From sequence record OZ035788.1: a stretch of 43,705 bases of DNA. One strand, 5' to 3'. Shown one piece after another: positions 3,914 to 28,348 of this stretch; position 1 is the first letter of the stretch, and each line of letters starts with the position of its first letter. Below the pieces are notes generated by a model. The model made no database searches. It saw only the letters and a list, made by a program, of their open reading frames with translations, and was not told the origin of the DNA. The DNA comes from Vectrevirus T147P1. The position numbers and the translations under genes are program-made.

Positions 3914-3992
3914 GTAAGATAGCGCCGTTCTTTTGAGCGGCCTATTACTAGCCAATCTTCATGGTGAGGGTTGGAAAGTAATAGGAGGTTTA

Positions 3993-9504: not shown

Positions 9505-9655
9505 GGTAAAGGCTGGCACTAGTCAGCCTATCAAGGCGCAAACCAAGCTCTTTAACAATTTGGATGGTAGCTTCTTAGTCTGGATAGGTTAAACCTAGGG
9601 GATTCTCTTGAGTCTCCTATAATGTAACCTAACTAACTAAATGAGGATTAATAAC

Positions 9656-10009
9656 ATGGCTATGTCTAATATGACTTACTCTCAGGTTTACAACACCGCT
9701 CATGCTGCATTAGTTGAACGTATCTGGGATGATGCTATTGATTGTATCGATAACGCACATGATGCAATCCATGAGGTGGCGGATAGTGCTGTACCAATCT
9801 ATTATGCTGACATCTTCTCAGTGATGGCCAGTGAAGGCATCGACCACTTCTTCGAGGATTCTGGCTTAATGCCAGACACTAAGGATGTGACGGTCGTACT
9901 ACAAGCCCGTATTTATGAACAACTCACCATTGATTTATGGGAACGTGTTCAAGATATGATTGATGAGTACATCGATTCCGCTGAGGATTCAGAAGAAGAG
10001 GAAGAATAA
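9656..10009 (+). CDS. ocr: Ocr-like DNA-mimic anti-restriction protein (T7 gp0.3 homolog)
   Basis: 117 aa; starts MAMSNMTY and contains [43 protein letters not shown] and an acidic C-terminus, matching T7 Ocr as I recall it; ORF opens at 9641 but the RBS supports 9656. Confidence 0.85.
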
Positions 10010-14003: not shown

Positions 14004-14011
14004 TATTAATA

Positions 14012-14040
14012 GGCCATTCCTTCGGGAGTGGCCTTTTCTT
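14012..14040 (+). terminator. intrinsic terminator after the RNAP gene (TE-like)
   Basis: GGCCATTCC-TTCG-GGAGTGGCC hairpin (9 bp, UUCG loop) followed by TTTTCTTTT. Confidence 0.6.
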
Positions 14041-14076
14041 TTACCTACTACCGGTAACATTTCATTAACATAAAGT

Positions 14077-14092
14077 GTCTCACATGTGAGAC
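14077..14092. repeat. 16-bp palindrome GTCTCACATGTGAGAC (copy 1)
   Basis: Perfect palindrome immediately upstream of the promoter at 14095. Confidence 0.8.
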
Positions 14093-14094
14093 TT

Positions 14095-14117
14095 ATTTAC
14101 CGGACACTATAGGATAG
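14095..14117 (+). promoter_or_regulatory. phage RNAP promoter
   Basis: ATTTACCGGACACTATAGGATAG. Confidence 0.7.
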
Positions 14118-14158
14118 CCGTCGGAGACGGGAAAGAAGGGAAGATAAAGGATATAAAA

Positions 14159-14215
14159 GGAAGTAATAGGTATTAAAGGTTATATAGGTTTACCTAGGAA
14201 TACCTATTACCTTCC
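14159..14215. repeat. AT-rich element with 16-bp inverted repeat arms (copy B); candidate replication origin core
   Basis: GGAAGTAATAGGTATT ... AATACCTATTACCTTCC arms flank AGGTTATATAGGT; lies between two phage promoters just downstream of the RNAP gene, the layout of the T7 primary origin. Confidence 0.45.
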
Positions 14216-14258
14216 TCCTTCCTCTTATTACTACTTAGAGGAAGGGCAGACCTAAGTT

Positions 14259-14274
14259 GTCTCACATGTGAGAC
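14259..14274. repeat. 16-bp palindrome GTCTCACATGTGAGAC (copy 2)
   Basis: Perfect palindrome immediately upstream of the promoter at 14280. Confidence 0.8.
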
Positions 14275-14279
14275 TTCGT

Positions 14280-14302
14280 ATTTACCGGACAGTATAGATA
14301 AG
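14280..14302 (+). promoter_or_regulatory. phage RNAP promoter (variant, G at -5)
   Basis: ATTTACCGGACAGTATAGATAAG. Confidence 0.5.
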
Positions 14303-14459
14303 ACTAACTTACTTTGGAGATTTAACCATGCGTAACTTTGAGAAGATGACCCGTAAAGCTAACCGTTTTGACATGGAAGAAGGGCAGACTAAAGGCAAGA
14401 AGCTTAATAAACCTGTCCGCGACCGTGCATCTAAACGCGCTGCGTGGGAGTTCTAAGTT

Positions 14460-14681
14460 ATGGCTAAATACAGGATTAAGACGTGTTTAAACAATCAGGG
14501 GCATGAGTGCTATATAGTACAGCGTAAGGTTCTACTGGGCTTGCTGTGGGTTACTTGTATGATGCCTATTGGCTACACTGACACTGAAGCCATCTTTGGC
14601 ACGGAAGATGATGCCTACAGATTCATCGCTAAACGTAGAAAAGTAGAACGTTATAAACACAGAATTATTAAGGTAAACTAA
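14460..14681 (+). CDS. hypothetical protein
   Basis: 73-aa ORF with GGGAG RBS; stop overlaps the primase start (TAATG). Confidence 0.55.
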   Translation: MAKYRIKTCLNNQGHECYIVQRKVLLGLLWVTCMMPIGYTDTEAIFGTEDDAYRFIAKRRKVERYKHRIIKVN

Positions 14682-16669
14682 TGGCTATAATCAATAACAT
14701 TCAATGCCCTGCTTGTGCTAAGAACGGGCATGATAAATCCTCTAATCATCTCATGATATTTGATGATGGTGCTGGCTACTGTAATCGTGGACACTTTCAT
14801 GATAATGGTAGACCTTACTACCACAAGCCGGAAGGTGGCATCGAGATAACCGAGTTACCTATTACTGGCAATATCAAATATACACCTTCTCAATTCAAAG
14901 AAATGGAGAAGGAAGGGAAGATAAGCGACCCTAAATTACGTGCCATCGCACTAGGTGGTATGCGTATGAAAGACCGTTGGGAGGTCATGAATGAGCAAGA
15001 AAGGGCAGACCAAGAAGCAGAGTGGAAACTTGATGTTGAATGGTTCCTCACGCTTAAGCGTAAGAACCTTGTTTCCCGACACATTCGCGGCGACATTTGC
15101 GCATTGTATGATGTACGTGTCGGACACGATGAAGAGGGTAGAGTCTCGCGGCATTACTATCCACGCTTCGAGAAAGGTGAGCTAGTAGGAGCTAAGTGTC
15201 GCACATTACCTAAAGACTTTAAGTTTGGTCATTTAGGTAAACTCTTTGGTATGCAAGACCTTTTCGGGATGAATACTTTGTCTCACGTGTTAGACAAGGG
15301 AAGACGAAAGGACTGCTTGCTCATTGTCGGCGGCGAACTGGATGCACTAGCAGCGCAGCAGATGCTCCTTGATTCTGCCAAGGGTACTAAGTGGGAGGGT
15401 CAGCCATACCATGTATGGTCTGTCAACAAAGGCGAGTCTTGCCTTGAAGAGATAGTGCAGAACCGTGAGCATATCGCCCAATTCAAGAAGATTATATGGG
15501 GTTTTGATGGAGATGAGGTAGGGCAGAAGCAGAATCAGCAAGCGGCTCGCCTGTTTCCTGGCAAATCCTATATCCTTGAATACCCCTCTGGTTGCAAAGA
15601 TGCTAACAAGGCATTGATGGCTGGCAAGGCTAAAGAATTTGTAGATGCATGGTTTAATGCCAAGTCATCTGATGAAGTCTTTGGTAGCCAGATTAAATCT
15701 ATTGCATCTCAAAGGGATAAGCTCAAGGCTGCACGTCCAGAGCAAGGACTATCATGGCCTTGGCCTAAGCTGAACAAGGTAACGCTAGGTATTCGTAAGA
15801 ATCAGCTTATCATTGTAGGTGCAGGGTCTGGTGTAGGTAAGACTGAGTTCCTTCGTGAAGTAGTTAAGCACCTCATTGAAGAACACGGTGAATCTGTAGG
15901 CATCATTTCTACAGAAGACCCGATGGTCAAGGTGTCCCGTGCTTTTATCGGCAAGTGGATTGATAAGCGTATTGAGTTACCGCCAACCAACGACCCGAAA
16001 GAAGATGGATACCGTGAGGTGTTCGACTACACCGAGGAAGAAGCTAACGCCGCCATTGATTATGTAGCTGATACAGGTAAGCTGTTTGTGGCTGACCTAG
16101 AGGGTGACTATTCGATGGAAAAGGTAGAGCAAACTTGCCTAGAGTTTGAGGCTATGGGCATTTCTAATATCATCATTGATAACTTAACGGGGATTAAATT
16201 AGATGAGCGTGCTTTTGGTGGGAAGGTTGGTGCACTTGATGAATGCGTCAAGCGGATTGGTACTATCAAAGACCGACACCCGGTTACTATATTCCTTGTA
16301 TCACACCTTACACGTCCTCCGGCAAACCGTACCCAACACGAAGAAGGTGGCGAAGTTATCCTTTCTGACTTCCGAGGCTCAGGCGCTATCGGATTCTGGG
16401 CATCTTACGCCTTGGGGATTGAGCGTAATACAAGAGCTGAAACGCTTGACGAAAGGACTACCACGTACATCTCATGTGTCAAAGACCGCGACCAAGGTAT
16501 CTGGACTGGAACCAAGGTCATGCTTAAGGGTGACATTCAAACCGGACGTTTAATGGAACCACAAGCCCGTACTAAGTCATTTGATACAGGTGAAGCAAGG
16601 CAACAAGAAGTGCCGGATTTACCGGACACTATAGAAGAGACAACCTTTGACGATGAACAGGAGTTTTAA
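14681..16669 (+). CDS. DNA primase/helicase (T7 gp4-like)
   Basis: 662 aa; N-terminal Cys4 zinc ribbon (CPACAKNGHDKSSNH...CNRGHFH), Walker A GAGSGVGKT of the DnaB-like helicase domain, acidic C-terminus ending in F. Confidence 0.95.
   Translation: MAIINNIQCPACAKNGHDKSSNHLMIFDDGAGYCNRGHFHDNGRPYYHKPEGGIEITELPITGNIKYTPSQFKEMEKEGKISDPKLRAIALGGMRMKDRWEVMNEQERADQEAEWKLDVEWFLTLKRKNLVSRHIRGDICALYDVRVGHDEEGRVSRHYYPRFEKGELVGAKCRTLPKDFKFGHLGKLFGMQDLFGMNTLSHVLDKGRRKDCLLIVGGELDALAAQQMLLDSAKGTKWEGQPYHVWSVNKGESCLEEIVQNREHIAQFKKIIWGFDGDEVGQKQNQQAARLFPGKSYILEYPSGCKDANKALMAGKAKEFVDAWFNAKSSDEVFGSQIKSIASQRDKLKAARPEQGLSWPWPKLNKVTLGIRKNQLIIVGAGSGVGKTEFLREVVKHLIEEHGESVGIISTEDPMVKVSRAFIGKWIDKRIELPPTNDPKEDGYREVFDYTEEEANAAIDYVADTGKLFVADLEGDYSMEKVEQTCLEFEAMGISNIIIDNLTGIKLDERAFGGKVGALDECVKRIGTIKDRHPVTIFLVSHLTRPPANRTQHEEGGEVILSDFRGSGAIGFWASYALGIERNTRAETLDERTTTYISCVKDRDQGIWTGTKVMLKGDIQTGRLMEPQARTKSFDTGEARQQEVPDLPDTIEETTFDDEQEF
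16617..16639 (+). promoter_or_regulatory. phage RNAP promoter inside the 3' end of the primase/helicase gene
   Basis: ATTTACCGGACACTATAGAAGAG. Confidence 0.7.
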
Positions 16670-16830
16670 TGGAAATTATTAAACCAGTATTGAATATCGG
16701 TATTGAGATCCTATTCATGCTTGTGATCGCAGATTATGCTGCACGATATGGATTCAAGAAAGCTGTGAAACTTATCGTTGCATCTGGTTTTCTTATGTCA
16801 ATGTTCTTTATTGTAACACGCCTTATCTAG
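16669..16830 (+). CDS. small two-TMD membrane protein
   Basis: 53 aa; AGGAG RBS; TAATG coupling to the helicase stop. Confidence 0.45.
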   Translation: MEIIKPVLNIGIEILFMLVIADYAARYGFKKAVKLIVASGFLMSMFFIVTRLI

Positions 16831-16847
16831 TGTATTTATCAGGGCTT

Positions 16848-16863
16848 GTCTCACATGTGAGAC
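16848..16863. repeat. 16-bp palindrome GTCTCACATGTGAGAC (copy 3)
   Basis: Embedded in an extended inverted repeat GGGCTTGTCTCACA / TGTGAGACAGGCTC. Confidence 0.8.
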
Positions 16864-16896
16864 AGGCTCTTATTAAGTACATTAAATAACTGGAGA

Positions 16897-17625
16897 TTGA
16901 TTATGTATAAATTAGTATTGAATGTAGGTGATTATGTTCGTAACATCAATGAAGCCTCACGTCGTTATCGTTGCCGTGGTGTAGTGGCTCGTGTAAGTGA
17001 GAACATGTATCATGTAGAATATGAGGATGGTATTAAGGCTTCTTACCACAAGAAAACAGCACATAAATATCTTGAAAAGATTGTAGAGATAAACAATCAA
17101 TGTAAGTGCATACATGATGAGGTTTGCGATAAGTGTGCACGTCAGGCAGTTAAAGCCTTTACCTTTGCTCAACGTTATGGTTCTATGTATGGCGCTGGTA
17201 ACAAGACCCTTGCAGAAGCAGCTTGGAAGACATTACAGTTTGAGCGTTCAAATGGACGACGCACCACAATTAAGAAAGAGCGCCGCAATGTAATCACTGG
17301 TAAGACTCAAAGTGAAATGATTAAGAAATGTGGCACTGCACTAGGTGTTACGCAGTTTAACACTCGTGCTCTTGGTAAATCCACAGGACAAGCTATGGTA
17401 AAGATTGGCGAAGCCATGATGCATCCAAATGTACCTGTACGAATCAGGGATGTTGACCATGCAATCACAGAACACAGTACGCAACGACGTGTAATTAATA
17501 AGCATTTTGCCGACACTATAGAAGGTATTATTCGTAAGCAAGGGTTGAAAGGTCTTCACATCTTGAATGATGAAGAGTTACTGTACCTCCCTATTGTTAC
17601 TGAAGAAACCTACGTGAATATCTAA
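16897..17625 (+). CDS. hypothetical protein
   Basis: 242-aa ORF with GGAGA RBS between helicase and DNA polymerase. Confidence 0.7.
   Translation: MIMYKLVLNVGDYVRNINEASRRYRCRGVVARVSENMYHVEYEDGIKASYHKKTAHKYLEKIVEINNQCKCIHDEVCDKCARQAVKAFTFAQRYGSMYGAGNKTLAEAAWKTLQFERSNGRRTTIKKERRNVITGKTQSEMIKKCGTALGVTQFNTRALGKSTGQAMVKIGEAMMHPNVPVRIRDVDHAITEHSTQRRVINKHFADTIEGIIRKQGLKGLHILNDEELLYLPIVTEETYVNI
17504..17526 (+). promoter_or_regulatory. phage RNAP promoter-like site inside a coding sequence
   Basis: ATTTTGCCGACACTATAGAAGGT; core GACACTATAGAAG conserved. Confidence 0.5.
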
Positions 17626-17635
17626 GGAGTTAATC

Positions 17636-17854
17636 ATGACTAAAGTATTAATTTATATGCGTGGACCTCATAAATGCTATGCAGTTGTAGCACCAAATGG
17701 TGTTAAGCCCTATAGTACTTCAAAAGGATTGGCATTAATAGGTGCTAGTAGTAGTGCAAGTTTCCAAATGGAACTTTTTGGTCATTGGAATGAAAGGCAA
17801 TTCCGTGAGGATTTTAAAGTCATTGGCAGCTTCATGGTGAAACATGCAGAATAA
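17636..17854 (+). CDS. hypothetical protein
   Basis: 72-aa ORF with AAGGAG RBS. Confidence 0.55.
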   Translation: MTKVLIYMRGPHKCYAVVAPNGVKPYSTSKGLALIGASSSASFQMELFGHWNERQFREDFKVIGSFMVKHAE

Positions 17855-17867
17855 ACATAGTCTTAAA

Positions 17868-18020
17868 ATGTTCGATGGTCATGAAGACCTGCAAGCCAAG
17901 ATTACTAACCAAGCCTTCCTGTTTGCACAGTTAACTATGGCTGAAGCAAAGAAGAATAGCCTGACGCGTGAACAGGTTATCAAGGAAAGTGAAGTGAAAC
18001 GTAAGATTCGCAGTCGATAA
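17868..18020 (+). CDS. small hypothetical protein
   Basis: 50-aa ORF MFDGHEDLQAKITNQAF...; no clear RBS. Confidence 0.25.
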   Translation: MFDGHEDLQAKITNQAFLFAQLTMAEAKKNSLTREQVIKESEVKRKIRSR

Positions 18021-18030
18021 GTCAAGGGTT

Positions 18031-18046
18031 GTCTCACACGTGAGAC
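18031..18046. repeat. 16-bp palindrome variant GTCTCACACGTGAGAC (copy 4)
   Basis: Centre dinucleotide differs; arms conserved; extended stem GGTTGTCTCAC / GTGAGACAGCC. Confidence 0.8.
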
Positions 18047-18077
18047 AGCCTTTCATCATATTGATTGGAGGTGCATT

Positions 18078-18185
18078 ATGCCACGTGATTATGATTCTGA
18101 TTGGGACTATTATGACTCAATGAATCCAAAACCCGAACGTTCAGATGATTACTACGAAACAGAGGCAATGTATGAAGACTATTGA
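18078..18185 (+). CDS. small acidic Tyr/Asp-rich peptide
   Basis: 35 aa MPRDYDSDWDYYDSMNPKPERSDDYYETEAMYEDY; GGAGG RBS 7 nt upstream; overlaps the DNA polymerase start. Confidence 0.4.
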   Translation: MPRDYDSDWDYYDSMNPKPERSDDYYETEAMYEDY

Positions 18186-20718
18186 TTGGAAGAAGGAGGC
18201 AGAAGGTCGTATCCTCGTGATGGATGCGGAAGCTAAAGGACTCCTTGACGCTATCCGATATGGACACCGTGAAGATGTGCATATCATTTGCTGCATGGAT
18301 TTGCTTACTACCGAGGAGTTTCTCTTCTTTGACCCGTATGAGATGCGTGACCCTGAAGCAAGAGAACGCCTGAAGGAATGGGAAGGTCATCAAGATGGAA
18401 CCTTGGTTGACGGTGTTAACTTCCTGAAGCACTGTGAGGCTATTGTGTCGCAGAACTTCCTAGGGTATGACGGTCTTCTCTTTGAGAAAGCATTCCCTGA
18501 TATTTGGAAAGGCTTTAACTATACCGAGAAGCGCGGTAAGGGCAGACTCCGTGCTGACCTGTGTCCTATCCGTGTTGTAGATACGCTGGTGATGAGTCGT
18601 CTGCTAAACCCAGATAGACGCCTTCCTCCGCAAGCATATGCCAAAGGCATGGGTAACGTCGCCCCTCACTCAATTGAGGCGCACGGCATCCGTATAGGCC
18701 GCTATAAACCAGAGAATGAGGACTGGTCTAAACTAACTGACCACATGGTTCACCGTGTACGTGAAGACGTGGCAATTGGTCGTGACCTTTTCCTATGGCT
18801 TTACAACGGAGAGTGGACGGAGCACAAACGCCGTGGCGTGAATAAACGTACTGGCCTAGGTATTGAGACAGCCTTCCACATGGAGTCCATTGTGGCGCTG
18901 GAGATGAGCCGTCAGGCCGAGCGCGGGTTCCGTCTGGACATCGACAAGGCTTTGGCCCGATGCGAAGAATTGGACGCTAAGATTGACGAGACAGTCGCAG
19001 CGTTCCGCCCTCACATGCCTATGCGTATCAAGTCTAAACCTTTTAAACCGGAAGAAAAGAATGAAGTATGCCAACGCGCAAATGAGTATGGAGCTAGCAA
19101 CAATATACCTACTGTCCTTGACCCCTCACACTTTCTTCATGCCGAGAGACGAGGAGATCGCAAGACAGTATGGAGTGTCACTACTAAGTCTGGTGATTGG
19201 TCGGCTAGTGTCAAGAAAGACTTTCCTCACCTTAGAGGAAACCGTAATGACACGCCAAGCATCAAGTGGATTGGCGCTTACTCGCCTGTTACTTTCGAAG
19301 AGATTCCCTTGGGTAACAGGGATACAGTTAAGCAAGTGCTCTATGATTATGGATGGAAAGGTGTTGAATTTAACGATACCGAGCAAGCGCATCTCGATGA
19401 GCACGGAGTGTTACCCAAACCTTGGAGTGGTAAGATAAATGAAAAGTCCCTTACTTTATGGCAAGAAAGAGCCGCACGTGAAGGTAAAACAGTCCCTGAT
19501 TGGTGCTTGGGTATCGCTGCATGGTACATACTCGTATCCCGTCGTGGTCAGATACTCAACCGTGGTGACGTTGAAGCCTTCAACGAGAAGGGGACGTGGC
19601 CCTCGCAGGCTGGTGTACGAAAGTGTCGCGGCCTTGTACCTGTAGCATTCAACAAGGAGCTAGGAATCAATGCGCAGCAATACTACGAGAGGTACGGATG
19701 TTGGCCTACGTCTGATAAAGATGACGGAGAGTGGCGTGTTCCAGCTGTTGCTATTAGCATTGGCACTTCTACGTTCCGTATGCGTCATCGTAACGTGGTT
19801 AATGTTCCTGCCCGTGGCTTGTATCCTTTACGTGATTTATTCATAGCAGGGAAAGGCAAGCTAATCCTTGGTTGTGACGGTGCAGGTCTTGAACTGCGTG
19901 TCCTGTCTCACTTCATGAATGACCCTGAGTACCAAGAGATTGTACTGCACGGTGATATTCATACGCATAACCAGATGAAGGCTGGTCTTCCTAAGCGTGA
20001 TATGGCGAAGACGTTTATATACGCCTTCCTCTATGGCTCTGGTATAGCCAACCTTGCAGCAGTATGTGGTGTTACTGAGGAAGAAATGAAGGAAGTTGTG
20101 GCAAGATTCGAGATTGAACTGCCGTCTCTTGCACGTCTTCGTGAGAATGTTATCGCACAAGGTAACAAGTTTGGCTACCTGCAAGCACCTGATGGGCATT
20201 GGGGTCGCATCCGCATGTCTGGTGGTGAACTTAAAGAGCACACGATGCTTAACGTATTACTCCAGATGACTGGCTCTTTGTGTATGAAATATGCATTAGT
20301 CAAGGCATTTGCAGTAATGCGCAAGGAAGGTGTAGCCTTGGATGCTATGGGAAATCCTTGTGGTGTGGCTAACGTGCATGATGAAATCCAGATGGAAGTC
20401 CCTGAAGAGGAGGTCTTGTATCTTAACTACGACCTACCTTTCACCTTAGATGGGTTCGAAACAGAGAAGGCTGCCGTGAAAGCAGTATTCGATGCAGAGG
20501 AGAAACGTGTTCATGTGGATTCTGAAGGACGTATGTGGTCTGCTGCAAACCTCGTTAGTGTTGATGCTGATGCTGGTGTATTGCATTGCCAGCGCCGTTA
20601 TCACCGTGCAGGTCATATCATTGCCGACGCCATGACTTGGGCAGGGCAGTATCTGAAGATGCGTTGCCCGATGGCAGGCGAATATAAGATTGGCGCAAGC
20701 TGGAAGGAAACACACTGA
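18172..20718 (+). CDS. DNA polymerase, family A (T7 gp5-like)
   Basis: About 848 aa; N-terminal exonuclease-like ILVMDAEAKGL; polymerase motifs including HDEIQMEVPEE; start chosen at the ATG after GAGG (ORF opens at 18145). Confidence 0.93.
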   Translation: MKTIDWKKEAEGRILVMDAEAKGLLDAIRYGHREDVHIICCMDLLTTEEFLFFDPYEMRDPEARERLKEWEGHQDGTLVDGVNFLKHCEAIVSQNFLGYDGLLFEKAFPDIWKGFNYTEKRGKGRLRADLCPIRVVDTLVMSRLLNPDRRLPPQAYAKGMGNVAPHSIEAHGIRIGRYKPENEDWSKLTDHMVHRVREDVAIGRDLFLWLYNGEWTEHKRRGVNKRTGLGIETAFHMESIVALEMSRQAERGFRLDIDKALARCEELDAKIDETVAAFRPHMPMRIKSKPFKPEEKNEVCQRANEYGASNNIPTVLDPSHFLHAERRGDRKTVWSVTTKSGDWSASVKKDFPHLRGNRNDTPSIKWIGAYSPVTFEEIPLGNRDTVKQVLYDYGWKGVEFNDTEQAHLDEHGVLPKPWSGKINEKSLTLWQERAAREGKTVPDWCLGIAAWYILVSRRGQILNRGDVEAFNEKGTWPSQAGVRKCRGLVPVAFNKELGINAQQYYERYGCWPTSDKDDGEWRVPAVAISIGTSTFRMRHRNVVNVPARGLYPLRDLFIAGKGKLILGCDGAGLELRVLSHFMNDPEYQEIVLHGDIHTHNQMKAGLPKRDMAKTFIYAFLYGSGIANLAAVCGVTEEEMKEVVARFEIELPSLARLRENVIAQGNKFGYLQAPDGHWGRIRMSGGELKEHTMLNVLLQMTGSLCMKYALVKAFAVMRKEGVALDAMGNPCGVANVHDEIQMEVPEEEVLYLNYDLPFTLDGFETEKAAVKAVFDAEEKRVHVDSEGRMWSAANLVSVDADAGVLHCQRRYHRAGHIIADAMTWAGQYLKMRCPMAGEYKIGASWKETH

Positions 20719-20834
20719 TGGATAAGCTTGACATTGTTTGCCTATTCTTCACTTTCTTTCTTACACTCCTTATGCTTGCTTGTTATGGGAGTATGAGACT
20801 AGATATACCTGATGAAGAAGAGGGTTACGACTAA
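20718..20834 (+). CDS. small membrane peptide
   Basis: 38 aa, hydrophobic core; ATG overlaps the polymerase stop. Confidence 0.3.
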   Translation: MDKLDIVCLFFTFFLTLLMLACYGSMRLDIPDEEEGYD

Positions 20835-20932
20835 TGCAAACTGCTTTTATTATTCTTGGTATCATAGTATTTATGGTAGTACTCTGGGCCTTCTCTGGCA
20901 TTGACCCGGATTGTGATGGTAACTACGACTGA
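20834..20932 (+). CDS. small membrane peptide
   Basis: 32 aa MQTAFIILGIIVFMVVLWAF...; TAATG coupling. Confidence 0.3.
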   Translation: MQTAFIILGIIVFMVVLWAFSGIDPDCDGNYD

Positions 20933-20989
20933 GTTATACTCAAGGTCACTTACGAGTGGCCTTTATGAATAACTTAACTGGAGAGTATT

Positions 20990-21250
20990 ATGATTAAATC
21001 ACAGAAGTATTTCTCAACTAAAGATCGTAAGGTAGGTTTTGAAATCAAAGTTTGGGAAGACGGACACATTACTATTATTTACGAAGGTAAAGGTTCTAAT
21101 GGTATGATGCTACGTAGATGCCGTACATTCACAAAGAAAGAATGTATGCATATGTCTGAATGCATGTTTCTTTACATCATTGCTGATGATATTAAAGGTA
21201 TGAAGCTAATTGTATCTCTACCTTTAATACCTAAATCTTTGTTAGGTTGA
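20990..21250 (+). CDS. hypothetical protein
   Basis: 86-aa ORF with GGAGAG RBS. Confidence 0.55.
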   Translation: MIKSQKYFSTKDRKVGFEIKVWEDGHITIIYEGKGSNGMMLRRCRTFTKKECMHMSECMFLYIIADDIKGMKLIVSLPLIPKSLLG

Positions 21251-21272
21251 TTTATTGGACACTATAGAAGGA
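21250..21272 (+). promoter_or_regulatory. phage RNAP promoter
   Basis: ATTTATTGGACACTATAGAAGGA. Confidence 0.7.
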
Positions 21273-21285
21273 AAGCCTAGACAAT

Positions 21286-21327
21286 CTAGGTTTATAAGGT
21301 AGTATAGGTAATTAAGTAAATATAGGA
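21286..21327 (+). repeat. promoter-proximal AT-rich TAGGT element (copy C)
   Basis: CTAGGTTTATAAGGTAGTATAGGTAATTAAGTAAATATAGGA; related to copies A and B. Confidence 0.4.
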
Positions 21328-21336
21328 GATATAAAC

Positions 21337-21714
21337 ATGTCTATGGTAACTACTCTGGTATTTGTAGCTCAATACTTTCGTGGTCTGGCTAATAAGTTCA
21401 AGTCCAAGGCTATCAAAGCTATTGAGTCTCGCATCGAGGCAGTACAGGCAGAGCAAGTTAAAGTTGAAGAACATCGTAGTTCTCAAATGATTGACTGCCA
21501 TAACCGCTACTATGCATCTCGTGATGACCTTAATGCACGCCAAGTCAAAGAGGTTGAAGAGATGCTGGCACGTCACCAGCAAGAGCGCGACAGTCTGAAA
21601 GCTGAATTTGAAGAGAACAAGGCATCCATCTCCATTGCACATCAAGCCGCATCTGACAGCCTGAAGAAAGAGATTGTTATGCTGGAGATTGAGTTAGACA
21701 ATCTTACCAAATAA
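21337..21714 (+). CDS. hypothetical coiled-coil protein with N-terminal hydrophobic segment
   Basis: 125 aa; AGGAG RBS; flanked by two phage promoters. Confidence 0.6.
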   Translation: MSMVTTLVFVAQYFRGLANKFKSKAIKAIESRIEAVQAEQVKVEEHRSSQMIDCHNRYYASRDDLNARQVKEVEEMLARHQQERDSLKAEFEENKASISIAHQAASDSLKKEIVMLEIELDNLTK

Positions 21715-21735
21715 TTACTGGACACTATAGAACAA
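21713..21735 (+). promoter_or_regulatory. phage RNAP promoter
   Basis: AATTACTGGACACTATAGAACAA. Confidence 0.65.
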
Positions 21736-21791
21736 TAGGTCGGCTTAGTTCGGCCTATGATTGTGTAGTGTAACAATAGGAGACTAAATAA

Positions 21792-22598
21792 ATGGCACGT
21801 GGTGATTTTGATTTTGGTGCTCAGGTTACTAAAGCTGAAGGTAAGGTTTTTAAGAACCCTGAAGTTGGTGATCATGAAGCAGTAATCTCTGGCATCATTC
21901 ATGTGGGTTCCTTCCAAGATATCTTTAAGAAAGGTAATACCACTGAAGTTAAGAAGCCAGCAAACTTTGTTCTTGTTAAGATTGTACTGATGGGTGACGA
22001 TGACAAGAACGAAGATGATTCTCGCATGGAACAGTGGATGGCTGTGCCTCTGAAGTCTGGTGACAAGGCAACCTTGACTAAGTTCCTGAATGCAGTTGAC
22101 CCTAAAGAGCTGCTTGGTGGTTTCGATGACTTCATCGGTGAATGCCTGACTGCAACTATGGTTGGCTCTGGCGACAAGAATGATGATGGTACTTTCAAGT
22201 ATGTTAACTGGAAAGGCTTTGGCGGTATGCCTGATAAGTTGAAGAAGCTTGTACTGGCTCAGGTAGAAGAGGAAGGTCTGTCTATGACAGGTCATATCAC
22301 CTTCGACAAGCTGACCAAAGAAATCCTTGATGACATCCCAGCTAACTTGGTGCGTCAATACTTCCTTAATGAAACACCTCGTGGTAAGAACCTGTCTGTT
22401 GCTGGTTCTCACGTAGAAGCAATCATTAAAGCTGCTCGTGAAGAAGACCCAGAGTGGAAGAAAGCCAAGAAGAAAGATGACGAGGATGCTACTCCAGCTA
22501 ATCGTAAACCTCTGGATACTGGTGAGTCTGTTCCACAGGAAGTACCTGAAGCAGAAGATACTCCTGCACCGGAGATGGATGAGGACGCGGAATATTAA
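21792..22598 (+). CDS. putative ssDNA-binding protein (gp2.5-like by architecture)
   Basis: 268 aa; acidic C-terminal tail ending in aromatic residue (PEMDEDAEY); codon usage of a highly expressed gene; product call is by analogy, not sequence identity. Confidence 0.55.
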   Translation: MARGDFDFGAQVTKAEGKVFKNPEVGDHEAVISGIIHVGSFQDIFKKGNTTEVKKPANFVLVKIVLMGDDDKNEDDSRMEQWMAVPLKSGDKATLTKFLNAVDPKELLGGFDDFIGECLTATMVGSGDKNDDGTFKYVNWKGFGGMPDKLKKLVLAQVEEEGLSMTGHITFDKLTKEILDDIPANLVRQYFLNETPRGKNLSVAGSHVEAIIKAAREEDPEWKKAKKKDDEDATPANRKPLDTGESVPQEVPEAEDTPAPEMDEDAEY

Positions 22599-22607
22599 GG
22601 AGAAAGG

Positions 22608-22826
22608 ATGAAAGTACAAATCGTAACTCTGCACTGCAAGAAAGGTATCACAACGCTCGGAGGTAGCACTTTCCACTCTTTCTCCGAAGGGGAGGTTTAT
22701 GCTGACCTGCACTACATCTGGCGCGACGGACAGCACGTGGTGAACTACAGCGACCCAGCTACGGGGAAACGTCACGGCGTATCGCTTCCGGCGCATGACA
22801 TTGCTCAGGTGAACACAGTTTTATAA
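22608..22826 (+). CDS. hypothetical protein
   Basis: 72-aa ORF with AAGGAG RBS. Confidence 0.55.
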   Translation: MKVQIVTLHCKKGITTLGGSTFHSFSEGEVYADLHYIWRDGQHVVNYSDPATGKRHGVSLPAHDIAQVNTVL

Positions 22827-22827
22827 A

Positions 22828-22843
22828 GTCTCACGTGTGAGAC
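22828..22843. repeat. 16-bp palindrome variant GTCTCACGTGTGAGAC (copy 5)
   Basis: Reverse complement of the copy-4 variant; about 15 nt upstream of the promoter at 22859. Confidence 0.8.
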
Positions 22844-22858
22844 AAATCGGTGTCCGGT

Positions 22859-22881
22859 ATTTACTGGACACTATAGAAGAG
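22859..22881 (+). promoter_or_regulatory. phage RNAP promoter
   Basis: ATTTACTGGACACTATAGAAGAG, exact consensus. Confidence 0.8.
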
Positions 22882-22930
22882 AAGAATTTTAATCGGCGAT
22901 AATGCCACAACTAACAAAGGAGAATTTAAT

Positions 22931-23311
22931 ATGTTCAAGATTGAAACTATCGTAAACCGTGTTGTTAAAGGTGCTGCTCTGGTATCCGTTGAGTCTTTCA
23001 TTATCGTCGATGAAGCTGATCAACTGGTAGCTGGTACTAAGGCTTACGATACCCGTGAAGAAGCTCAGGCTAAGATTGACAGCATGGGTAACTTCGCTGC
23101 TGGTCTGGAGTTCGCTCGCGCTTGCTTCCCTGAGCAGGCTGACAAAGCTCAGATTGGTAAGGCTAATATCGTAGCTGAATATCTGGATTGGATTGCTGCT
23201 GGTAAGCCGGTGAAAGAAGTTAAGTCTGCTGAAGAAGCTGAAGCTCAGGCAGTAGAAGAAGAAGTAGCTGCACCGGTAGATGCTCCGGTAAGCGAAGAGG
23301 AAGAGTTTTAA
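22931..23311 (+). CDS. abundant small acidic protein of unknown function
   Basis: 126 aa; ends VSEEEEF; strongly host-optimised codons; own consensus promoter and a downstream hairpin. Confidence 0.7.
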   Translation: MFKIETIVNRVVKGAALVSVESFIIVDEADQLVAGTKAYDTREEAQAKIDSMGNFAAGLEFARACFPEQADKAQIGKANIVAEYLDWIAAGKPVKEVKSAEEAEAQAVEEEVAAPVDAPVSEEEEF

Positions 23312-23317
23312 TTGATG

Positions 23318-23350
23318 CCCTGTCTGCCTTAGTGTAGGCAGGGTCTTTTG
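23318..23350 (+). terminator. possible terminator hairpin with T-run
   Basis: CCCTG(TCT)GCC ... GGCAGGG bulged stem followed by TCTTTTG. Confidence 0.3.
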
Positions 23351-23375
23351 CGTAATAGTTATTGGAGAATGAATT

Positions 23376-23681
23376 ATGCCGACTATTAAATCTCGTTTAG
23401 TAGCAGACTATGTGTATGGTCGTGACTTAAAGTTAATGCAAGATTACTTTAAAGTAATCATCCTGCTGGATGGAGAAGTGTTTCACACTAAAACATTCAC
23501 CCTTCCTGAATTGTTTGATTTAGGTTATTGGGGTTATACATATCAGGCCATAGCAGAAAAGGTGCTACTCAGTGTATTAGAGGAGTGGCCTACATGCGAC
23601 CAAACTTCGACTTCGGAGCTACAGTATCGGAAGACAATAATCTCATCTTGTGGCCAACTGAAGGTAATCGAATCGCTTTAA
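23376..23681 (+). CDS. hypothetical protein
   Basis: 101-aa ORF with GGAGA RBS; its 3' end overlaps the exonuclease start. Confidence 0.45.
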   Translation: MPTIKSRLVADYVYGRDLKLMQDYFKVIILLDGEVFHTKTFTLPELFDLGYWGYTYQAIAEKVLLSVLEEWPTCDQTSTSELQYRKTIISSCGQLKVIESL

Positions 23682-24622
23682 TAGATGCTGATATGTTACC
23701 TTACATCGTCGGGTATACAATCAGTGACATGACTTATGTACGAGCTACAACTCGTGTTAAGTCAGGACAAGTCCCATCAATCAAAGATACCCCTGAGTGT
23801 AAGCAAGCGTGTGACCGTGTGAACTCCTTGCTTAACTCTTGGGTGTATGCAGCAGAGTGTGATGCTGCTAAGTTATTCATGACGAAATCAGAAGCTAACT
23901 TCCGAGTTCGCCTAGCCTTCACCAAACCCTATAAGGGTCAACGTAAGACCGAGAAGCCTCCGTTCTTCTATGAATTGCGAGAGCATCTCTTAGAGGTTCA
24001 TGGTGCAATCTTGGCAGATGGAGAAGAGGCTGATGACCTCATGAGCATTGCACAATGGGACAGCCACCGCCGCTTCCAGCAAGATACAGGTAACGAGTTC
24101 CCTATCGGTAGTCCAGAGCATAAAGCATTCTCTGATACTTGCATCGTTTCCTTAGATAAGGATTTGATGATTGTTCCCGGTTGGCATCTTCAGCCGGGTC
24201 AAGAGAAGAAATGGGTAGAGCCTATGGGTTGGCTTGAGTTACGCCGTAAGGCTAATGGTCAGGTTAAAGACCTTAAAGGTGCTGGCCTCATGTTTCATTA
24301 TGCACAGATGATTATCGGTGATGATATTGATAACTATGCTGGCATACCTGGACGTGGTGCTAAATACGCCTATGATCTTCTCAAATATTGTAAGACAGAG
24401 AAAGAGTTGTACATGGCAGTGCTTGGTGCTTACAAGGCTAAGTTCGGACATGGACAAGTTAAGATTAAGAATTACCGAGGGGGTTATCGTATCGGCAAGG
24501 CTTTTGACCTGATGCTCGAATGTGGTCGTCTAGCTCACATGGCAAGATTCAAAGGTGATATATGGCGAGCCGATAAGAACCCAATCTTGTGGGGAGATGA
24601 TGCGGAATGGTTAGCAAATTAA
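23594..24622 (+). CDS. 5'-3' exonuclease (T7 gp6-like)
   Basis: About 342 aa from the ATG after GAGGAG (ORF opens at 23528); acidic clusters IALIDADMLPY, EEADDLM, SLDKDLMIVPG, IGDDIDNYAGIPG typical of FEN-type nucleases. Confidence 0.85.
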   Translation: MRPNFDFGATVSEDNNLILWPTEGNRIALIDADMLPYIVGYTISDMTYVRATTRVKSGQVPSIKDTPECKQACDRVNSLLNSWVYAAECDAAKLFMTKSEANFRVRLAFTKPYKGQRKTEKPPFFYELREHLLEVHGAILADGEEADDLMSIAQWDSHRRFQQDTGNEFPIGSPEHKAFSDTCIVSLDKDLMIVPGWHLQPGQEKKWVEPMGWLELRRKANGQVKDLKGAGLMFHYAQMIIGDDIDNYAGIPGRGAKYAYDLLKYCKTEKELYMAVLGAYKAKFGHGQVKIKNYRGGYRIGKAFDLMLECGRLAHMARFKGDIWRADKNPILWGDDAEWLAN

Positions 24623-25017
24623 AATCATCTGAGGTAGCAGCTTATAAGAGGGAATTGCTAGAGAAGCAAGGATGGCAGTGCCCCCTATGTGGCGGCAGTC
24701 TCAAGGCTGTTACTCCTATAAACCGTGTACTTGACCATGACCATGAGACAGGATTCTGCCGTGCTGTTGTATGCCGAGGCTGCAATGGTGCAGAAGGAAA
24801 GATTAAGGGTGTTATCTCTGGTTACGGTAAGGCTGGTAACAACCGTTACTTCCAGCTTCAATGGTTAGAGCGACTATATGGATACTGGAAGTTACATAGT
24901 ACGCCTCAGACAGATAAGTTATATCACAAACATCAAACGGAGGCAGAGAAGCGCGAGGCTAAGAACCGTAAGGCACGCCTTGCTTATGCAAGAAAGAAGG
25001 AGGTTAAAGTTGGGTAA
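24607..25017 (+). CDS. endonuclease VII-like Holliday junction resolvase
   Basis: 136 aa; CPLCGG...LDHDHETGFCRAVVCRGCNGAEGKIKG matches the zinc-binding His-Cys box of T4 endonuclease VII as recalled. Confidence 0.8.
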   Translation: MVSKLKSSEVAAYKRELLEKQGWQCPLCGGSLKAVTPINRVLDHDHETGFCRAVVCRGCNGAEGKIKGVISGYGKAGNNRYFQLQWLERLYGYWKLHSTPQTDKLYHKHQTEAEKREAKNRKARLAYARKKEVKVG

Positions 25018-26017
25018 GCTTCGCAGCTTGTACAAAGACTCCGAGGTACTTGATGCAATCGAGCAAGCTACCGACGAGAAAGGTAATGTTAATTACAATG
25101 AGATGGCACGTGTATTATCGTGTCACCCTGTGGGTAAGAAGATTACCCGCCAGTTGGCTCGATACTGGCATGGTCAATTCAAGAAGACCAAGAAGAATGG
25201 TGATTATTACCAGACCCTTCTGCAAGAAGATAAGCGTATCAAAGAAGAGCGTAAGCTCAGGACTCCTGACCGCTACGAGGATTTGGCTATTGTACCATTG
25301 CCTGACTCGCCTCATCGAAGTGTACTGGTAATCCCTGATACTCATGCACCTTATGAGCATCCAGATACCTTAGAGTTCCTTGCAGCCGTAGCAGCACGTT
25401 ACCGTCCAGACACAGTGGTACACCTAGGAGATGAGGCAGACAAACATGCCCTGTCATTCCACGATTCGGACCCAAATCTGGATAGTGCTGGCATGGAGTT
25501 AGAGAAGGCTCGTATCTTCATGCACAAATTGCACAAGATGTTCCCTGTTATGCGCCTGTGTCACTCTAACCATGGCTCTATGCACTTCCGTAAGGCAAGC
25601 GCCAAAGGCATCCCTGTGCAATACCTGCGCACCTACCGTGAAGTCTTCTTCCCGCAGGGAGGTGGCGACCAGTGGGACTGGCAGCATACTCATGTTCTTG
25701 AGCTACCTAATGGTGAACAGGTGGCGTTCAAGCATCAACCTGCTGGCTCTGTTCTAGCAGATGCAGCGCATGAGCGCATGAACCTAGTGTGTGGTCACTT
25801 GCATGGTAAGATGTCTGTGGAGTACGCACGTAATACACATGAACAGTATTGGGCTGTGCAAGGTGGCTGCTTAATTGATGAGTCATCCCGTGCATTTGCC
25901 TATGGGCGTGAGTCTAAATACAAGCCAGCATTAGGTTGTGTGGTTATTCTGGAGGGTGTACCTCATATTGTCCCGATGCAAACCAATAGCGACAACCGTT
26001 GGATTGGCAAGATTTAG
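25010..26017 (+). CDS. calcineurin-like metallophosphoesterase, TTG start
   Basis: Motifs DTH, GDEAD, SNHG in order; AAGGAGG 6 nt upstream of TTG (ORF opens at 24878 in the overlap with the previous gene). Confidence 0.75.
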   Translation: MGKLRSLYKDSEVLDAIEQATDEKGNVNYNEMARVLSCHPVGKKITRQLARYWHGQFKKTKKNGDYYQTLLQEDKRIKEERKLRTPDRYEDLAIVPLPDSPHRSVLVIPDTHAPYEHPDTLEFLAAVAARYRPDTVVHLGDEADKHALSFHDSDPNLDSAGMELEKARIFMHKLHKMFPVMRLCHSNHGSMHFRKASAKGIPVQYLRTYREVFFPQGGGDQWDWQHTHVLELPNGEQVAFKHQPAGSVLADAAHERMNLVCGHLHGKMSVEYARNTHEQYWAVQGGCLIDESSRAFAYGRESKYKPALGCVVILEGVPHIVPMQTNSDNRWIGKI

Positions 26018-26034
26018 TTGACACTATAGAACAA
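26012..26034 (+). promoter_or_regulatory. phage RNAP promoter (SP6-like G at -12)
   Basis: ATTTAGTTGACACTATAGAACAA; overlaps the phosphoesterase stop. Confidence 0.65.
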
Positions 26035-26117
26035 AGGGCTAGGTAAGACTTTATCGGCTGGCGTATCCAAATGATATTGCACTAGCCCTTGATTGTATAG
26101 TGAATGGAGGATTCAAT

Positions 26118-26621
26118 ATGTCACACTATGAATGTAAGAAGTGTCATAAGCGTTATGATTACTGTACTTGTGGTCAAGAGAAAACATCTTTTAAAGTTGG
26201 AGACAAGGTATTTCGTAATGAAAAATATCCGAGTCCTTGGAATCAATACTGCAAAGAAGCTGGTATTGACCCTGATAGCCCTGTAACCATAGATGATATT
26301 GATGGCATTAACTTGTGCTTTCGTGAGGTGAGGGGTACAGGTTGGGATTCCAAAAGATTCAAACTTGCATCTGATAAGTTAGACAACAATATGGTAACTC
26401 AGCCTAAGCACTACGAGTTCTTTGATGGCGTAGAAGCAATTACTATCATCGCCCGTAGTATGACCGAGAAGCAATTCGCGGGGTATTGCATGGGTAATGC
26501 TTTGAAGTATCGTCTGCGTGCAGGTAAGAAGTTCAATACTGAAGAAGACCTGAAGAAAGCAGACTACTACAAAGAGTTATTCCAGAAGCATCGTCACGAA
26601 TGTATTGATGAGGATATTTGA
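26118..26621 (+). CDS. hypothetical protein with N-terminal Cys cluster
   Basis: 167 aa from the ATG after GGAGG (ORF opens with GTG at 26100); CKKCHKRYDYCTC; C-terminal NALKYRLRAGKKFNTEEDLKKADYY. Confidence 0.65.
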   Translation: MSHYECKKCHKRYDYCTCGQEKTSFKVGDKVFRNEKYPSPWNQYCKEAGIDPDSPVTIDDIDGINLCFREVRGTGWDSKRFKLASDKLDNNMVTQPKHYEFFDGVEAITIIARSMTEKQFAGYCMGNALKYRLRAGKKFNTEEDLKKADYYKELFQKHRHECIDEDI

Positions 26622-26622
26622 T

Positions 26623-27570
26623 ATGAATATCTTTGAGTTCCTAGGTCTTCCAGAAGACCACCGCAATCACCCATTCATGTTGGTGAAGCATCGCGGTGAA
26701 GTTCCTGAGAAGAAATTAACTTTTCCATGTTATGCACAAGTGAAACGAGATGGAATATTCAGTGCTGTTGTGGTGCGCAATGATGGTGCTGTTGCCATCT
26801 TCGGTCGTACTGGTAAGAAGCTCGCAAATGTTGAATCCTTGGAAAAGACATTTAGTGTATTTCCTGTCGGGTTGTATCTTGGTGAGTTGCAATCTATGGC
26901 TGTTGATGTTTATCTTGAAGCCCTGTCAGGAGTGGTAAACCCTAATCGTACAGAGCCACTTGACTTCATAGGCCAGCAGATTAAAGACAACCTGTATATC
27001 GACTTCTTCGATATGTTAACTATTAAGGCATTCCATGATGGATTCACTGATGTTTCTTATCTCAAACGTTACGATGCTTTACATCGTCGCATCGGCGCTC
27101 ATCTTAGCGGGTACAACGCTATCCTTCCTATTACTCCTTGCCATAATGAGCGAGAAGTTGAAGCGTTTGCGCAAGAGCAGATAGACGCAGGCCGAGAAGG
27201 TGCTGTGTTTAAACTGGACTGTGATTATGAAGCAGGACATAAAGGTTATCGTCAGACTAAAGAAATCCGTAAGGTAACTTATGACCTTACTTGTATTGGC
27301 TTTGAAGAAGGTAAAGGCAAATACAAAGGTAAGGTAGCTAACCTCATTTTCAAATGGAAAGGAGGCAAGACAATCAAAGCTATGTTAGGTAAGGGGTGGA
27401 CTCATGCAGATGCAGAACAGATGTTCCACGACATTAAACATGGTGGACGATTGAATGTCATTGGTAAAATCTTTGAAGTCAAAGGTCTTCAGGATTCAAG
27501 CAAGGGCAACATTCGTCTGCCCAAAGCGGGAGAATTAAGACATGACAAAGATGAACCAGATTTCTTTTGA
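26623..27570 (+). CDS. ATP-dependent DNA ligase
   Basis: 315 aa; nucleotidyltransferase motifs KRDG (motif I, lysine adenylation site), LGELQ, EGAVFK, and a KxK motif. Confidence 0.82.
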   Translation: MNIFEFLGLPEDHRNHPFMLVKHRGEVPEKKLTFPCYAQVKRDGIFSAVVVRNDGAVAIFGRTGKKLANVESLEKTFSVFPVGLYLGELQSMAVDVYLEALSGVVNPNRTEPLDFIGQQIKDNLYIDFFDMLTIKAFHDGFTDVSYLKRYDALHRRIGAHLSGYNAILPITPCHNEREVEAFAQEQIDAGREGAVFKLDCDYEAGHKGYRQTKEIRKVTYDLTCIGFEEGKGKYKGKVANLIFKWKGGKTIKAMLGKGWTHADAEQMFHDIKHGGRLNVIGKIFEVKGLQDSSKGNIRLPKAGELRHDKDEPDFF

Positions 27571-27757
27571 TAGCATGAAGGCAACTCGTGCAGTTGAGGT
27601 AGCAGAAGCTATCTTTGAAACTTTATCCTGTGGCATGGAAGTGCCATATACTTTACTTGCTGATGCAGAAGAACTTGGTCTTTCTGTAGAAGCTATCCAA
27701 GAGAAGGTTGACGAATTATATGGTACAGACGAAGAAGAAACCGACGATTTCATTTGA
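27542..27757 (+). CDS. small acidic hypothetical protein
   Basis: 71 aa; GGGAG RBS; C-terminus TDEEETDDFI. Confidence 0.5.
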   Translation: MTKMNQISFDSMKATRAVEVAEAIFETLSCGMEVPYTLLADAEELGLSVEAIQEKVDELYGTDEEETDDFI

Positions 27758-27886
27758 AGGAATGGAGATGCTTGAGATGATTCTCAAGCCTTCTTCTCCG
27801 AAGGTGACTAAGACTCATGAAGAGTTAATCGTTGATGAAGTGAAGCGTTACATCATGGATTGTGTCAGAGCACAACTGGTGGTTCA

Positions 27887-28348
27887 ATGATACGTCCAGC
27901 TTCCTTCCTAGATATCCCTGAGATTATAAACCTTGGGAATAAATATGTGGAAGAGGAAGTCAAGGTAGTGGCCCATCACTCAGCCTCATGGAATGCAGAA
28001 CAAAGTGCACATAACCTTTGTGCATCTCTTAGTAGAGAAGATTTATTCCTATGGGTGGCTGTAGATGAAGGGAAGATTGTAGGGTTCCTGTGGGCTGGCT
28101 ATCACGAGTTAGCCCCTTGGACACCTGTAAGGGTTGCCTCTGACATTCTCTTTTACATTATACCAGAGAAGCGAGGGACACTACTAGGTATGCGTCTTAT
28201 CAAGGCTCTTAAACAATGGGCTAATGAAAATGAATGCTCTGAGGTTCGCCTGTCTATCGCCTCTGGTATTAATGAAGAACGTGTCGGACGTATGTATAAG
28301 CGACTTGGCTTTGAACCGTTTGGCACTGTGTACAACCTGAAGTTCTAA
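27887..28348 (+). CDS. GNAT-family N-acetyltransferase
   Basis: 153 aa; acetyl-CoA-binding-like core RGTLLGMRLIKALKQWA and C-terminal RLGFEPFG (ORF opens at 27860). Confidence 0.65.
   Translation: MIRPASFLDIPEIINLGNKYVEEEVKVVAHHSASWNAEQSAHNLCASLSREDLFLWVAVDEGKIVGFLWAGYHELAPWTPVRVASDILFYIIPEKRGTLLGMRLIKALKQWANENECSEVRLSIASGINEERVGRMYKRLGFEPFGTVYNLKF

Follow-up and report, generated by a model that had tools for sequence, protein, structure and literature searches.

The primase-helicase, a 268-amino-acid (aa) protein and a 126-aa protein of Vectrevirus T147P1 (sequence record OZ035788.1) end in short acidic tails closed by a terminal Phe or Tyr, and on balance these three tails probably represent a docking tag shared in the replisome, with the DNA polymerase as the likeliest receptor and the cleft of the protein that binds single-stranded DNA (ssDNA), the SSB, as the second candidate. 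The stretch analysed (43,705 nucleotides, hereafter the window) is a complete, circularly permuted Vectrevirus (K1E/SP6-like) genome whose genes all lie on the + strand, as do all the features located below. The C-termini read ...TTFDDEQEF in the helicase, ...PEMDEDAEY in the 268-aa protein and ...VSEEEEF in the 126-aa protein, with four to five Asp or Glu among the last eight residues, and the motif common to them, in most cases of the form E/D-x-E-[FY]-COOH, consists of a few acidic residues with Phe or Tyr as the final residue. The original prediction, made from the letters of this stretch, had placed a fourth protein of 71 aa (...EEETDDFI) in the same group of aromatic-ended tails. All four termini had been read exactly, but the aromatic residue is terminal in only three of them, as the 71-aa protein ends in Ile and its Phe is penultimate.

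A strict definition of the tail was adopted (terminal Phe, Tyr or Trp, with at least three Asp or Glu and no Lys or Arg among the six preceding residues), under which 3 of the 57 open reading frames (ORFs) of the window carry one. The number expected per proteome is 0.115 by residue shuffling (with a maximum of 2 in 2000 shuffles) and 0.12 when every internal position is taken as a pseudo-terminus. Under similar scoring only gp2.5 (...EADEDGDF) and gp4 (...SNDTDF) of T7 are retrieved, and phiKMV has no such tail at all. The three tails observed against about 0.12 expected, together with the zero of phiKMV, indicate that they are neither a product of chance nor a general property of the Autographiviridae.

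Conservation was followed in a sample of 19 GenBank genomes and 43 IMG/VR loci, reduced to 30 non-redundant genomes and comprising Molineuxvirinae, Colwellvirinae and unclassified relatives. Across these roughly 30 genomes the terminal Phe or Tyr is kept in three unrelated families (helicase, 268-aa and 126-aa proteins) down to about 30% identity, while the linkers ahead of the tails diverge freely. The helicase tail is conserved across Molineuxvirinae, Colwellvirinae and allied phages; within the GenBank genomes 15 of the 18 intact helicase orthologues have a terminal Phe or Tyr preceded by acidic residues, and the 268-aa and 126-aa proteins each end in Phe or Tyr in 17 of 19. Nearly all the exceptions come from Uliginvirus (Pseudomonas phages Njord and uligo), where the three tails carry the Phe plus one or two additional residues (TFE/TFD, TFD/VFE and SFS/AFEG in Njord/uligo). 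The remaining one is the helicase of SP6 (L003, 6472-8457), which ends ...TQEFNG, while that of a close SP6-like contig (L031) ends ...TQEF; the difference looks like a two-codon extension past the usual Phe. The primase-helicase of Proteus phage PM93 (L004, 7919-9908) is annotated as two overlapping coding sequences, with an apparent frameshift, and the second piece ends ...DEIEEF.

The three tails also resemble one another within a genome. When genome labels were permuted and similarity was scored over the last five residues, the helicase tail was found to co-vary with that of the 268-aa protein (p<5e-5) and with that of the 126-aa protein (p=0.012), and these two co-vary with each other (p=0.014); no pair containing the ligase, another protein of the region with an acidic end (see below), was significant. 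All three tails are Tyr-ended in two lineages, Klebsiella phage F5M1D (ESEY, GAEY and AEEY) and Aeromonas phage MJG (GASY, EATY and DAAY), and both the helicase and the 268-aa protein are so in locus L054 (NDSY and NQNY). Matching pairs within one genome are seen in VEN (EQEF/EQEF) and KL01 (ADEEF/ADEEF). Such a resemblance within genomes is what one would anticipate were a single receptor to read the tails.

The primase-helicase (662 aa, 14681..16669) is recognised by the Pfam models DnaB_C (1.4e-14) and Toprim_2 and is the analogue of T7 gp4, its relatives being annotated as DNA primase/helicase. Its C-terminal linker and tail, DLPDTIEETTFDDEQEF, are encoded at 16616..16666. The same DNA contains a promoter of the phage RNA polymerase, ATTTACCGGACACTATAGAAG (16617..16637, one mismatch to the phage consensus), which encodes ...LPDTIEE, the promoter core GACACTATAGAAGAG corresponding to residues DTIEE. 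The Q-E codons of the tail read CAGGAG, which resembles a ribosome-binding site (RBS) and is placed 7 nucleotides ahead of the ATG at 16669 that opens a 53-aa gene. A single 50-nucleotide stretch (16617-16669) combines promoter, RBS-like sequence and protein tail.

The 268-aa protein (21792..22598), orthologue of SP6 gp18, is likely the SSB analogue of this phage, working like gp2.5 of T7 but not demonstrably a member of the gp2.5 family, because of its OB fold, its genomic context and the lack of any rival SSB candidate among the scanned ORFs of the window (several small ORFs lay outside the scan). The predicted model adopts an OB-like fold with ssDNA-binding proteins as its best structural matches, and the linker that precedes the tail is disordered (predicted local distance difference test, pLDDT, <50). 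Foldseek matches the model to DUF669 proteins (E ~1e-4, probability 1.00), while the DUF669 Pfam model matches no member of the family at E≤10. A highly diverged OB fold has been proposed and acidic C-terminal tails have been reported for DUF669 proteins, which occur in phages without a canonical SSB (Kazlauskas et al. 2016, PMC4889955). The original prediction had proposed a search for a gp2.5-like OB fold in this protein; an OB-type fold is predicted, together with the disordered linker, but without sequence homology to gp2.5, a relationship that was rejected given a hhalign probability of 0.04% and the absence of matches in a PDB profile search and in Pfam. Homology with gp45 of phage N4 was rejected too (hhalign probability 0.17%), a local IG..F.V...DG..YV resemblance being not significant.

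The tail of the 268-aa protein, EMDEDAEY (22572..22595), represents the conserved ending of a family of 47 clusters with matches in 215 phage records, and every listed annotated record calls the protein "hypothetical" or gives it a stray name. Members as distant as 33% identity still end in [ML]-D-x-x-x-E-[YF], and the 35-40 residues before this ending are variable and of low complexity. Upstream of the gene lie a phage promoter, AATTACTGGACACTATAGAAC (21713..21733, two mismatches), and, further upstream, another one (21250-21270).

The 126-aa protein (22931..23311), orthologue of SP6 gp20 and member of phrog_4429, ends in the tail SEEEEF (23291..23308). Its model (AlphaFold2, pLDDT 80.8) consists of a beta-hairpin and three helices spanning residues 1 to about 95 (pLDDT about 90), after which a disordered Ala/Glu/Pro/Val linker (pLDDT <50) leads to SEEEEF; fold, PDB and Pfam searches with this protein gave no significant match. 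The family comprises 212 clusters (E≤1e-3) with 24 representatives at 50% identity. The ending EEEF is present in 120 of 120 close homologues, and the distant ones (30-50% identity) mostly end in E-x-F. At distant metagenomic loci a protein of 84-91 aa, encoded just downstream of the 268-aa homologue, ends ...ADEDF or ...EAETF and retains the C-terminal helix of the 126-aa family. The phyletic distributions of the 126-aa and 268-aa proteins are alike (212 versus 215 phage records, in the same genera), and the gene for the former sits one or two genes downstream of the gene for the latter in every genome examined. Judged by its sequence, the 126-aa tail is a genuine third member of the class, without a counterpart in T7.

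Expression signals surround this gene. A perfect-consensus phage promoter (22859..22879, 0 mismatches) lies upstream, the only others without mismatches being those before the major capsid gene (31045) and a tailspike gene (3891); an RBS-like sequence, AAAGGAGAA, precedes the gene, and a terminator-like hairpin with a T-run (23317..23344; an 11-bp stem, then CTTTTG) follows directly 3' of it. Of 20 diverse genomes, at least 15 have an equivalent hairpin and T-run after their 126-aa orthologue, and in PM93 a terminator is annotated at that place; a terminator after a gene of unknown function has been reported in SP6 and UAB_Phi78 (PMC4837284). The frequency of optimal codons (Fop), calculated with a standard set of optimal codons for E. 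coli, is the highest of the genome for the 126-aa gene (0.756), compared with 0.679 for the capsid gene, 0.671 for the neighbouring 72-aa gene and 0.603 for the 268-aa gene. Taken together, the perfect promoter, the RBS-like sequence, the terminator conserved in relatives and the top Fop make the 126-aa protein almost certainly one of the most abundant proteins of the phage, and such abundance suits a stoichiometric function more than catalysis. The gene forms a self-contained expression unit (22859-23344) of promoter, RBS-like sequence and terminator. The 72-aa gene (22608-22826; phrog_5791), which separates the 268-aa gene from the 126-aa gene, ranks third in Fop, is conserved in Molineuxvirinae and bears no acidic tail.

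In the favoured mechanism the three tails, each carried by a flexible linker, would dock on one shared receptor surface of the replisome, as those of gp4 and gp2.5 do in T7. The receptor would most probably be the DNA polymerase; the other candidate is the cleft in which the SSB binds ssDNA, by analogy with the gp2.5 tail. With this tag the helicase hexamer and the SSB would capture the polymerase, hold it and pass it on, and the abundant 126-aa protein would join them as a third client at that site, either bringing an activity to the fork or competing in a concentration-dependent manner and tuning the exchange among helicase, polymerase and SSB. What the analysis shows is the tails themselves with their conservation, disorder and partial co-variation, as well as an OB fold and the signals for expression; the receptor and all of the binding steps are inferred. 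The analogy with the T7 tails had originally been extended to four proteins and taken to suggest more tail-bearing partners than in T7. Two of the four fit the analogy, the helicase matching gp4 and the 268-aa protein being a functional analogue of gp2.5 by its OB fold, linker and tail. The surplus of partners is supported for the 126-aa protein, whose tail is equally conserved and partly co-varies with the others. It is not supported for the 71-aa protein, in whose family no terminal aromatic residue is conserved. Competitive regulation of the docking site, also raised in the original prediction, stays at the level of a hypothesis.

By analogy with T7, our best guess for the receptor is the family A DNA polymerase (857 aa, 18145..20718; Pfam DNA_pol_A), which aligns with T7 gp5 and was compared with it together with 19 relatives. 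A candidate docking site is the thumb insertion (about residues 294-393, 19024..19323), which aligns with the thioredoxin-binding domain of T7. It measures 100 aa here (100-121 aa in the set) versus about 86 in T7, both have in common a C-terminal DT..(V/I)G.Y(T/S)PV motif, and some of its basic residues align with the T7 loops A and B. A second region, whose role is speculative, is the clade-specific loop R-I-R-M-S-G-G-E-L-K (20206..20235) located beside the position of the T7 front basic patch. It holds a six-residue insertion with a strong basic character in Colwellvirinae (RIRKSGGK, RVRRTGKK) and a weaker one in this phage (RIRMSGGELK).

Several observations weigh against a shared tag read by the polymerase. 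The front basic patch of T7 (K587/K589/R590/R591) is absent, a 14-residue T7-specific segment being deleted and the aligned residues being K-F-G-Y. The thumb insertion is weakly basic, with a net charge of +4 (-1 to +5 in relatives) versus +8 in T7 and few conserved basic positions, and no column of the polymerase, the 268-aa protein or the helicase tracks the switch from Phe to Tyr in the Tyr-ended lineages. The folded domain of the 126-aa protein is itself acidic (isoelectric point 4.9) and matches nothing known. The co-variation test ignores phylogeny, and the p-values near 0.01 for the 126-aa tail rest on three or four independent events. Lastly, the embedded promoter (DTIEE) and RBS-like sequence (QE) constrain part of the helicase tail in Molineuxvirinae. 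These overlaps explain neither the terminal Phe of the helicase nor the tails of the other two proteins: the RBS-like sequence downstream of the 268-aa gene comes after the stop codon of that gene, and a terminator, not a coupled gene, follows the 126-aa gene.

A more specific and decidedly more tentative proposal concerns the 126-aa protein (SP6 gp20 family), which could be a so far unrecognised and highly abundant part of the T7-type replisome, or a regulator of it, in Molineuxvirinae, Colwellvirinae and allied phages, using the tail it has in common with helicase and SSB to occupy the tail-docking site of the polymerase or of the SSB. It might act as an accessory or processivity factor, or as a concentration-dependent buffer governing how fast the polymerase is exchanged between helicase and SSB. 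If so, competition for the site would be three-way, with no counterpart in T7.

The best surviving alternative, which we nevertheless hold unlikely, is that the 126-aa tail acts on the 268-aa protein and not on the polymerase, the two forming a heteromeric SSB or the smaller one serving as a chaperone or regulator of the SSB. The tail would then fill the OB cleft and control loading on ssDNA, at an abundance matched to that of the SSB; work of Marintcheva et al. in 2008 is said to have found that the gp2.5 tail competes with ssDNA for the protein's own binding surface. The strict co-occurrence of the two genes, their adjoining positions and their place in one codon-optimised, promoter-rich block of 268-aa, 72-aa and 126-aa genes (Fop 0.60, 0.67 and 0.76) would agree with such a pair. 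However, the 268-aa protein already has a tail of its own for that purpose, and the 126-aa tail co-varies with it (p=0.014) no more strongly than with the helicase (p=0.012).

It is rather improbable that the 126-aa protein, and perhaps the 71-aa one, is a decoy directed at the host that mimics the tip of bacterial SSB (DDDIPF) and titrates exonuclease I, RecQ, PriA or Ung, sparing or favouring phage DNA. The architecture of flexible linker, acidic tip and terminal Phe is indeed that of bacterial SSB tails, the very high expression would suit a titrating inhibitor, and the 126-aa gene lies in the interval between DNA polymerase and exonuclease where T7 keeps its host-directed genes 5.5-5.9. 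Yet no I-P-F is found in the tails of the roughly 30 genomes, and the 126-aa ending follows the tails of the phage helicase and SSB (Tyr in all three, or Phe plus extension in all three) and not a host constant. The 126-aa family belongs, moreover, to the core genes of phages whose hosts differ as widely as Escherichia, Vibrio, Pseudomonas, Marinomonas and Shewanella, and neither the 126-aa protein nor the 71-aa family shows similarity to gp5.5 and gp5.9, respectively, which were rejected as their relatives.

That the tails lack any specific function, being solubility or disorder tails or by-products of overlapping regulatory DNA with a coincidental aromatic residue, is very improbable: the double-coding helicase tail and the several other proteins of the genome with acidic ends but no aromatic cap would be in line with it, but the other two tails have no such overlap, three families in more than one subfamily retain the terminal Phe or Tyr despite divergent linkers, and the tails far exceed the chance expectation given above.

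The shared tag we favour does not extend to the other acidic ends of the region. The ATP-dependent DNA ligase (26605..27570) is covered by Pfam DNA_ligase_A_M and DNA_ligase_OB_2, the latter ending at residue 312 of 321, and its tail (27550-27567) comes straight behind the OB domain and motif VI (RHDK) to give the terminus ...RHDK-DEPDFF, which had escaped the original prediction (as ...HDKDEPDFF). The ending DK-x-x-x-D-[FY] is present in 15 of 18 relatives. Membership in the same system was rejected, since the ligase tail does not co-vary with the others and remains D-F in Uliginvirus, where the other three are extended; the D-[FY] terminus is treated as a separate conserved feature.

The 71-aa protein (27542..27757; phrog_5860) is acidic and helical, and in its family acidity alone is conserved, an aromatic residue occurring within the last four positions in roughly half of the members. 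It was rejected from the terminal-aromatic class on account of its final Ile and of the variable presence and position of the aromatic residue. A 38-aa ORF (20718-20834) that begins at the polymerase stop codon is hydrophobic, probably single-pass, and ends ...PDEEEGYD; SP6 gp15 (L003, 12128-12226) occupies the same place and ends ...DPDYDGNYD, and both look like small membrane peptides. As small hydrophobic peptides ending in G/N-Y-D, they were rejected as replisome tails. The 71-aa and 38-aa acidic ends are outside the tail system. Besides the 38-aa peptide, acidic ends without a final aromatic residue that the original prediction did not list belong to the DUF3310 protein (...ECIDEDI) and to a homologue of the DNA mimic Ocr in the early region (9641-10009; Pfam ocr, 6e-42), which ends ...DSEEEEE with no aromatic cap.

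The best Megablast matches of positions 14000-28000 are Vectrevirus phages (K1E/K1-5-like; Autographiviridae, Molineuxvirinae) at 95-97% identity, and 79 phage records cover at least 80% of this query. In gene order the window has terminase, lysis and two beta-helix tailspike genes, next the early genes (Ocr among them), then the gene for RNA polymerase, followed by the replication module and the genes of the virion. The part before the early region holds the small and large terminase subunits, an endolysin, a spanin and the two tailspike genes (3933-5885 and 5971-7683), which recall the dual-spike arrangement of K1-5. The DNA-metabolism module also contains an exonuclease, an endonuclease VII, a phosphoesterase and the gp1.7-like DUF3310 protein. 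Vibrio phage Vc1 (NC_047746) bears a taxonomy line of Drexlerviridae, yet its module of T7-like RNA polymerase, helicase, polymerase, 268-aa and 126-aa proteins is typical of Colwellvirinae. A literature search on SP6-like phages, which did not cover the SP6 genome paper (PMC374404), yielded no paper naming an SSB or characterising the gp18 and gp20 families.

Textbooks present the replisome of T7 as the minimal one, and two tails underlie its electrostatic-tether logic. In the phages described here that logic would be kept with three changes, namely an SSB unrelated in sequence and so far unnamed, a polymerase without the front basic patch and a third, abundant bearer of the tag. Candidates for phage therapy are found among the SP6/K1E/K1-5 group and the marine Colwellvirinae, as is the phage that supplies SP6 RNA polymerase, and the proposal would give a functional annotation to a "hypothetical" gene in more than 200 phage genomes. 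These phages would also offer a natural system to learn how a docking site is shared among several clients and where it is located in the absence of the T7 patch. Removing just the last residue provides a handle on the function of a core gene of unknown function.

Among the closest known systems, T7 gp4 (...SNDTDF) is a homologous protein (DnaB_C plus Toprim) with a flexible, acidic, Phe-ended tail that tethers the polymerase through basic patches; the tail here differs in reading E-Q-E-F instead of D-T-D-F and in having a promoter and an RBS-like sequence in its DNA. T7 gp2.5 (...EDGDF) is comparable to the 268-aa protein in size (232 versus 268 aa), OB-type core and disordered acidic C-terminus, and likewise in its essential-looking terminal aromatic residue, its own promoter and its high expression. 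Of other OB-fold or SSB-like proteins, gp45 of N4 ends ...SLFGKK, and PrgE of plasmid pCF10 (PDB 8S4S), an SSB-like protein with an OB fold, is 128 residues long, shows 15% sequence identity and is plasmid-borne, not part of a phage replisome. The T7 ligase differs from the one described here in lacking the DK-x-x-x-D-[FY] terminus. The tip of bacterial SSB (E. coli ...MDFDDDIPF) shares with the present tails the disordered linker, the acidic tip and the terminal Phe, and the 268-aa tail even begins with M-D; in bacteria, however, one tag serves many receptors, whereas in these phages the tags of several proteins would presumably serve one.

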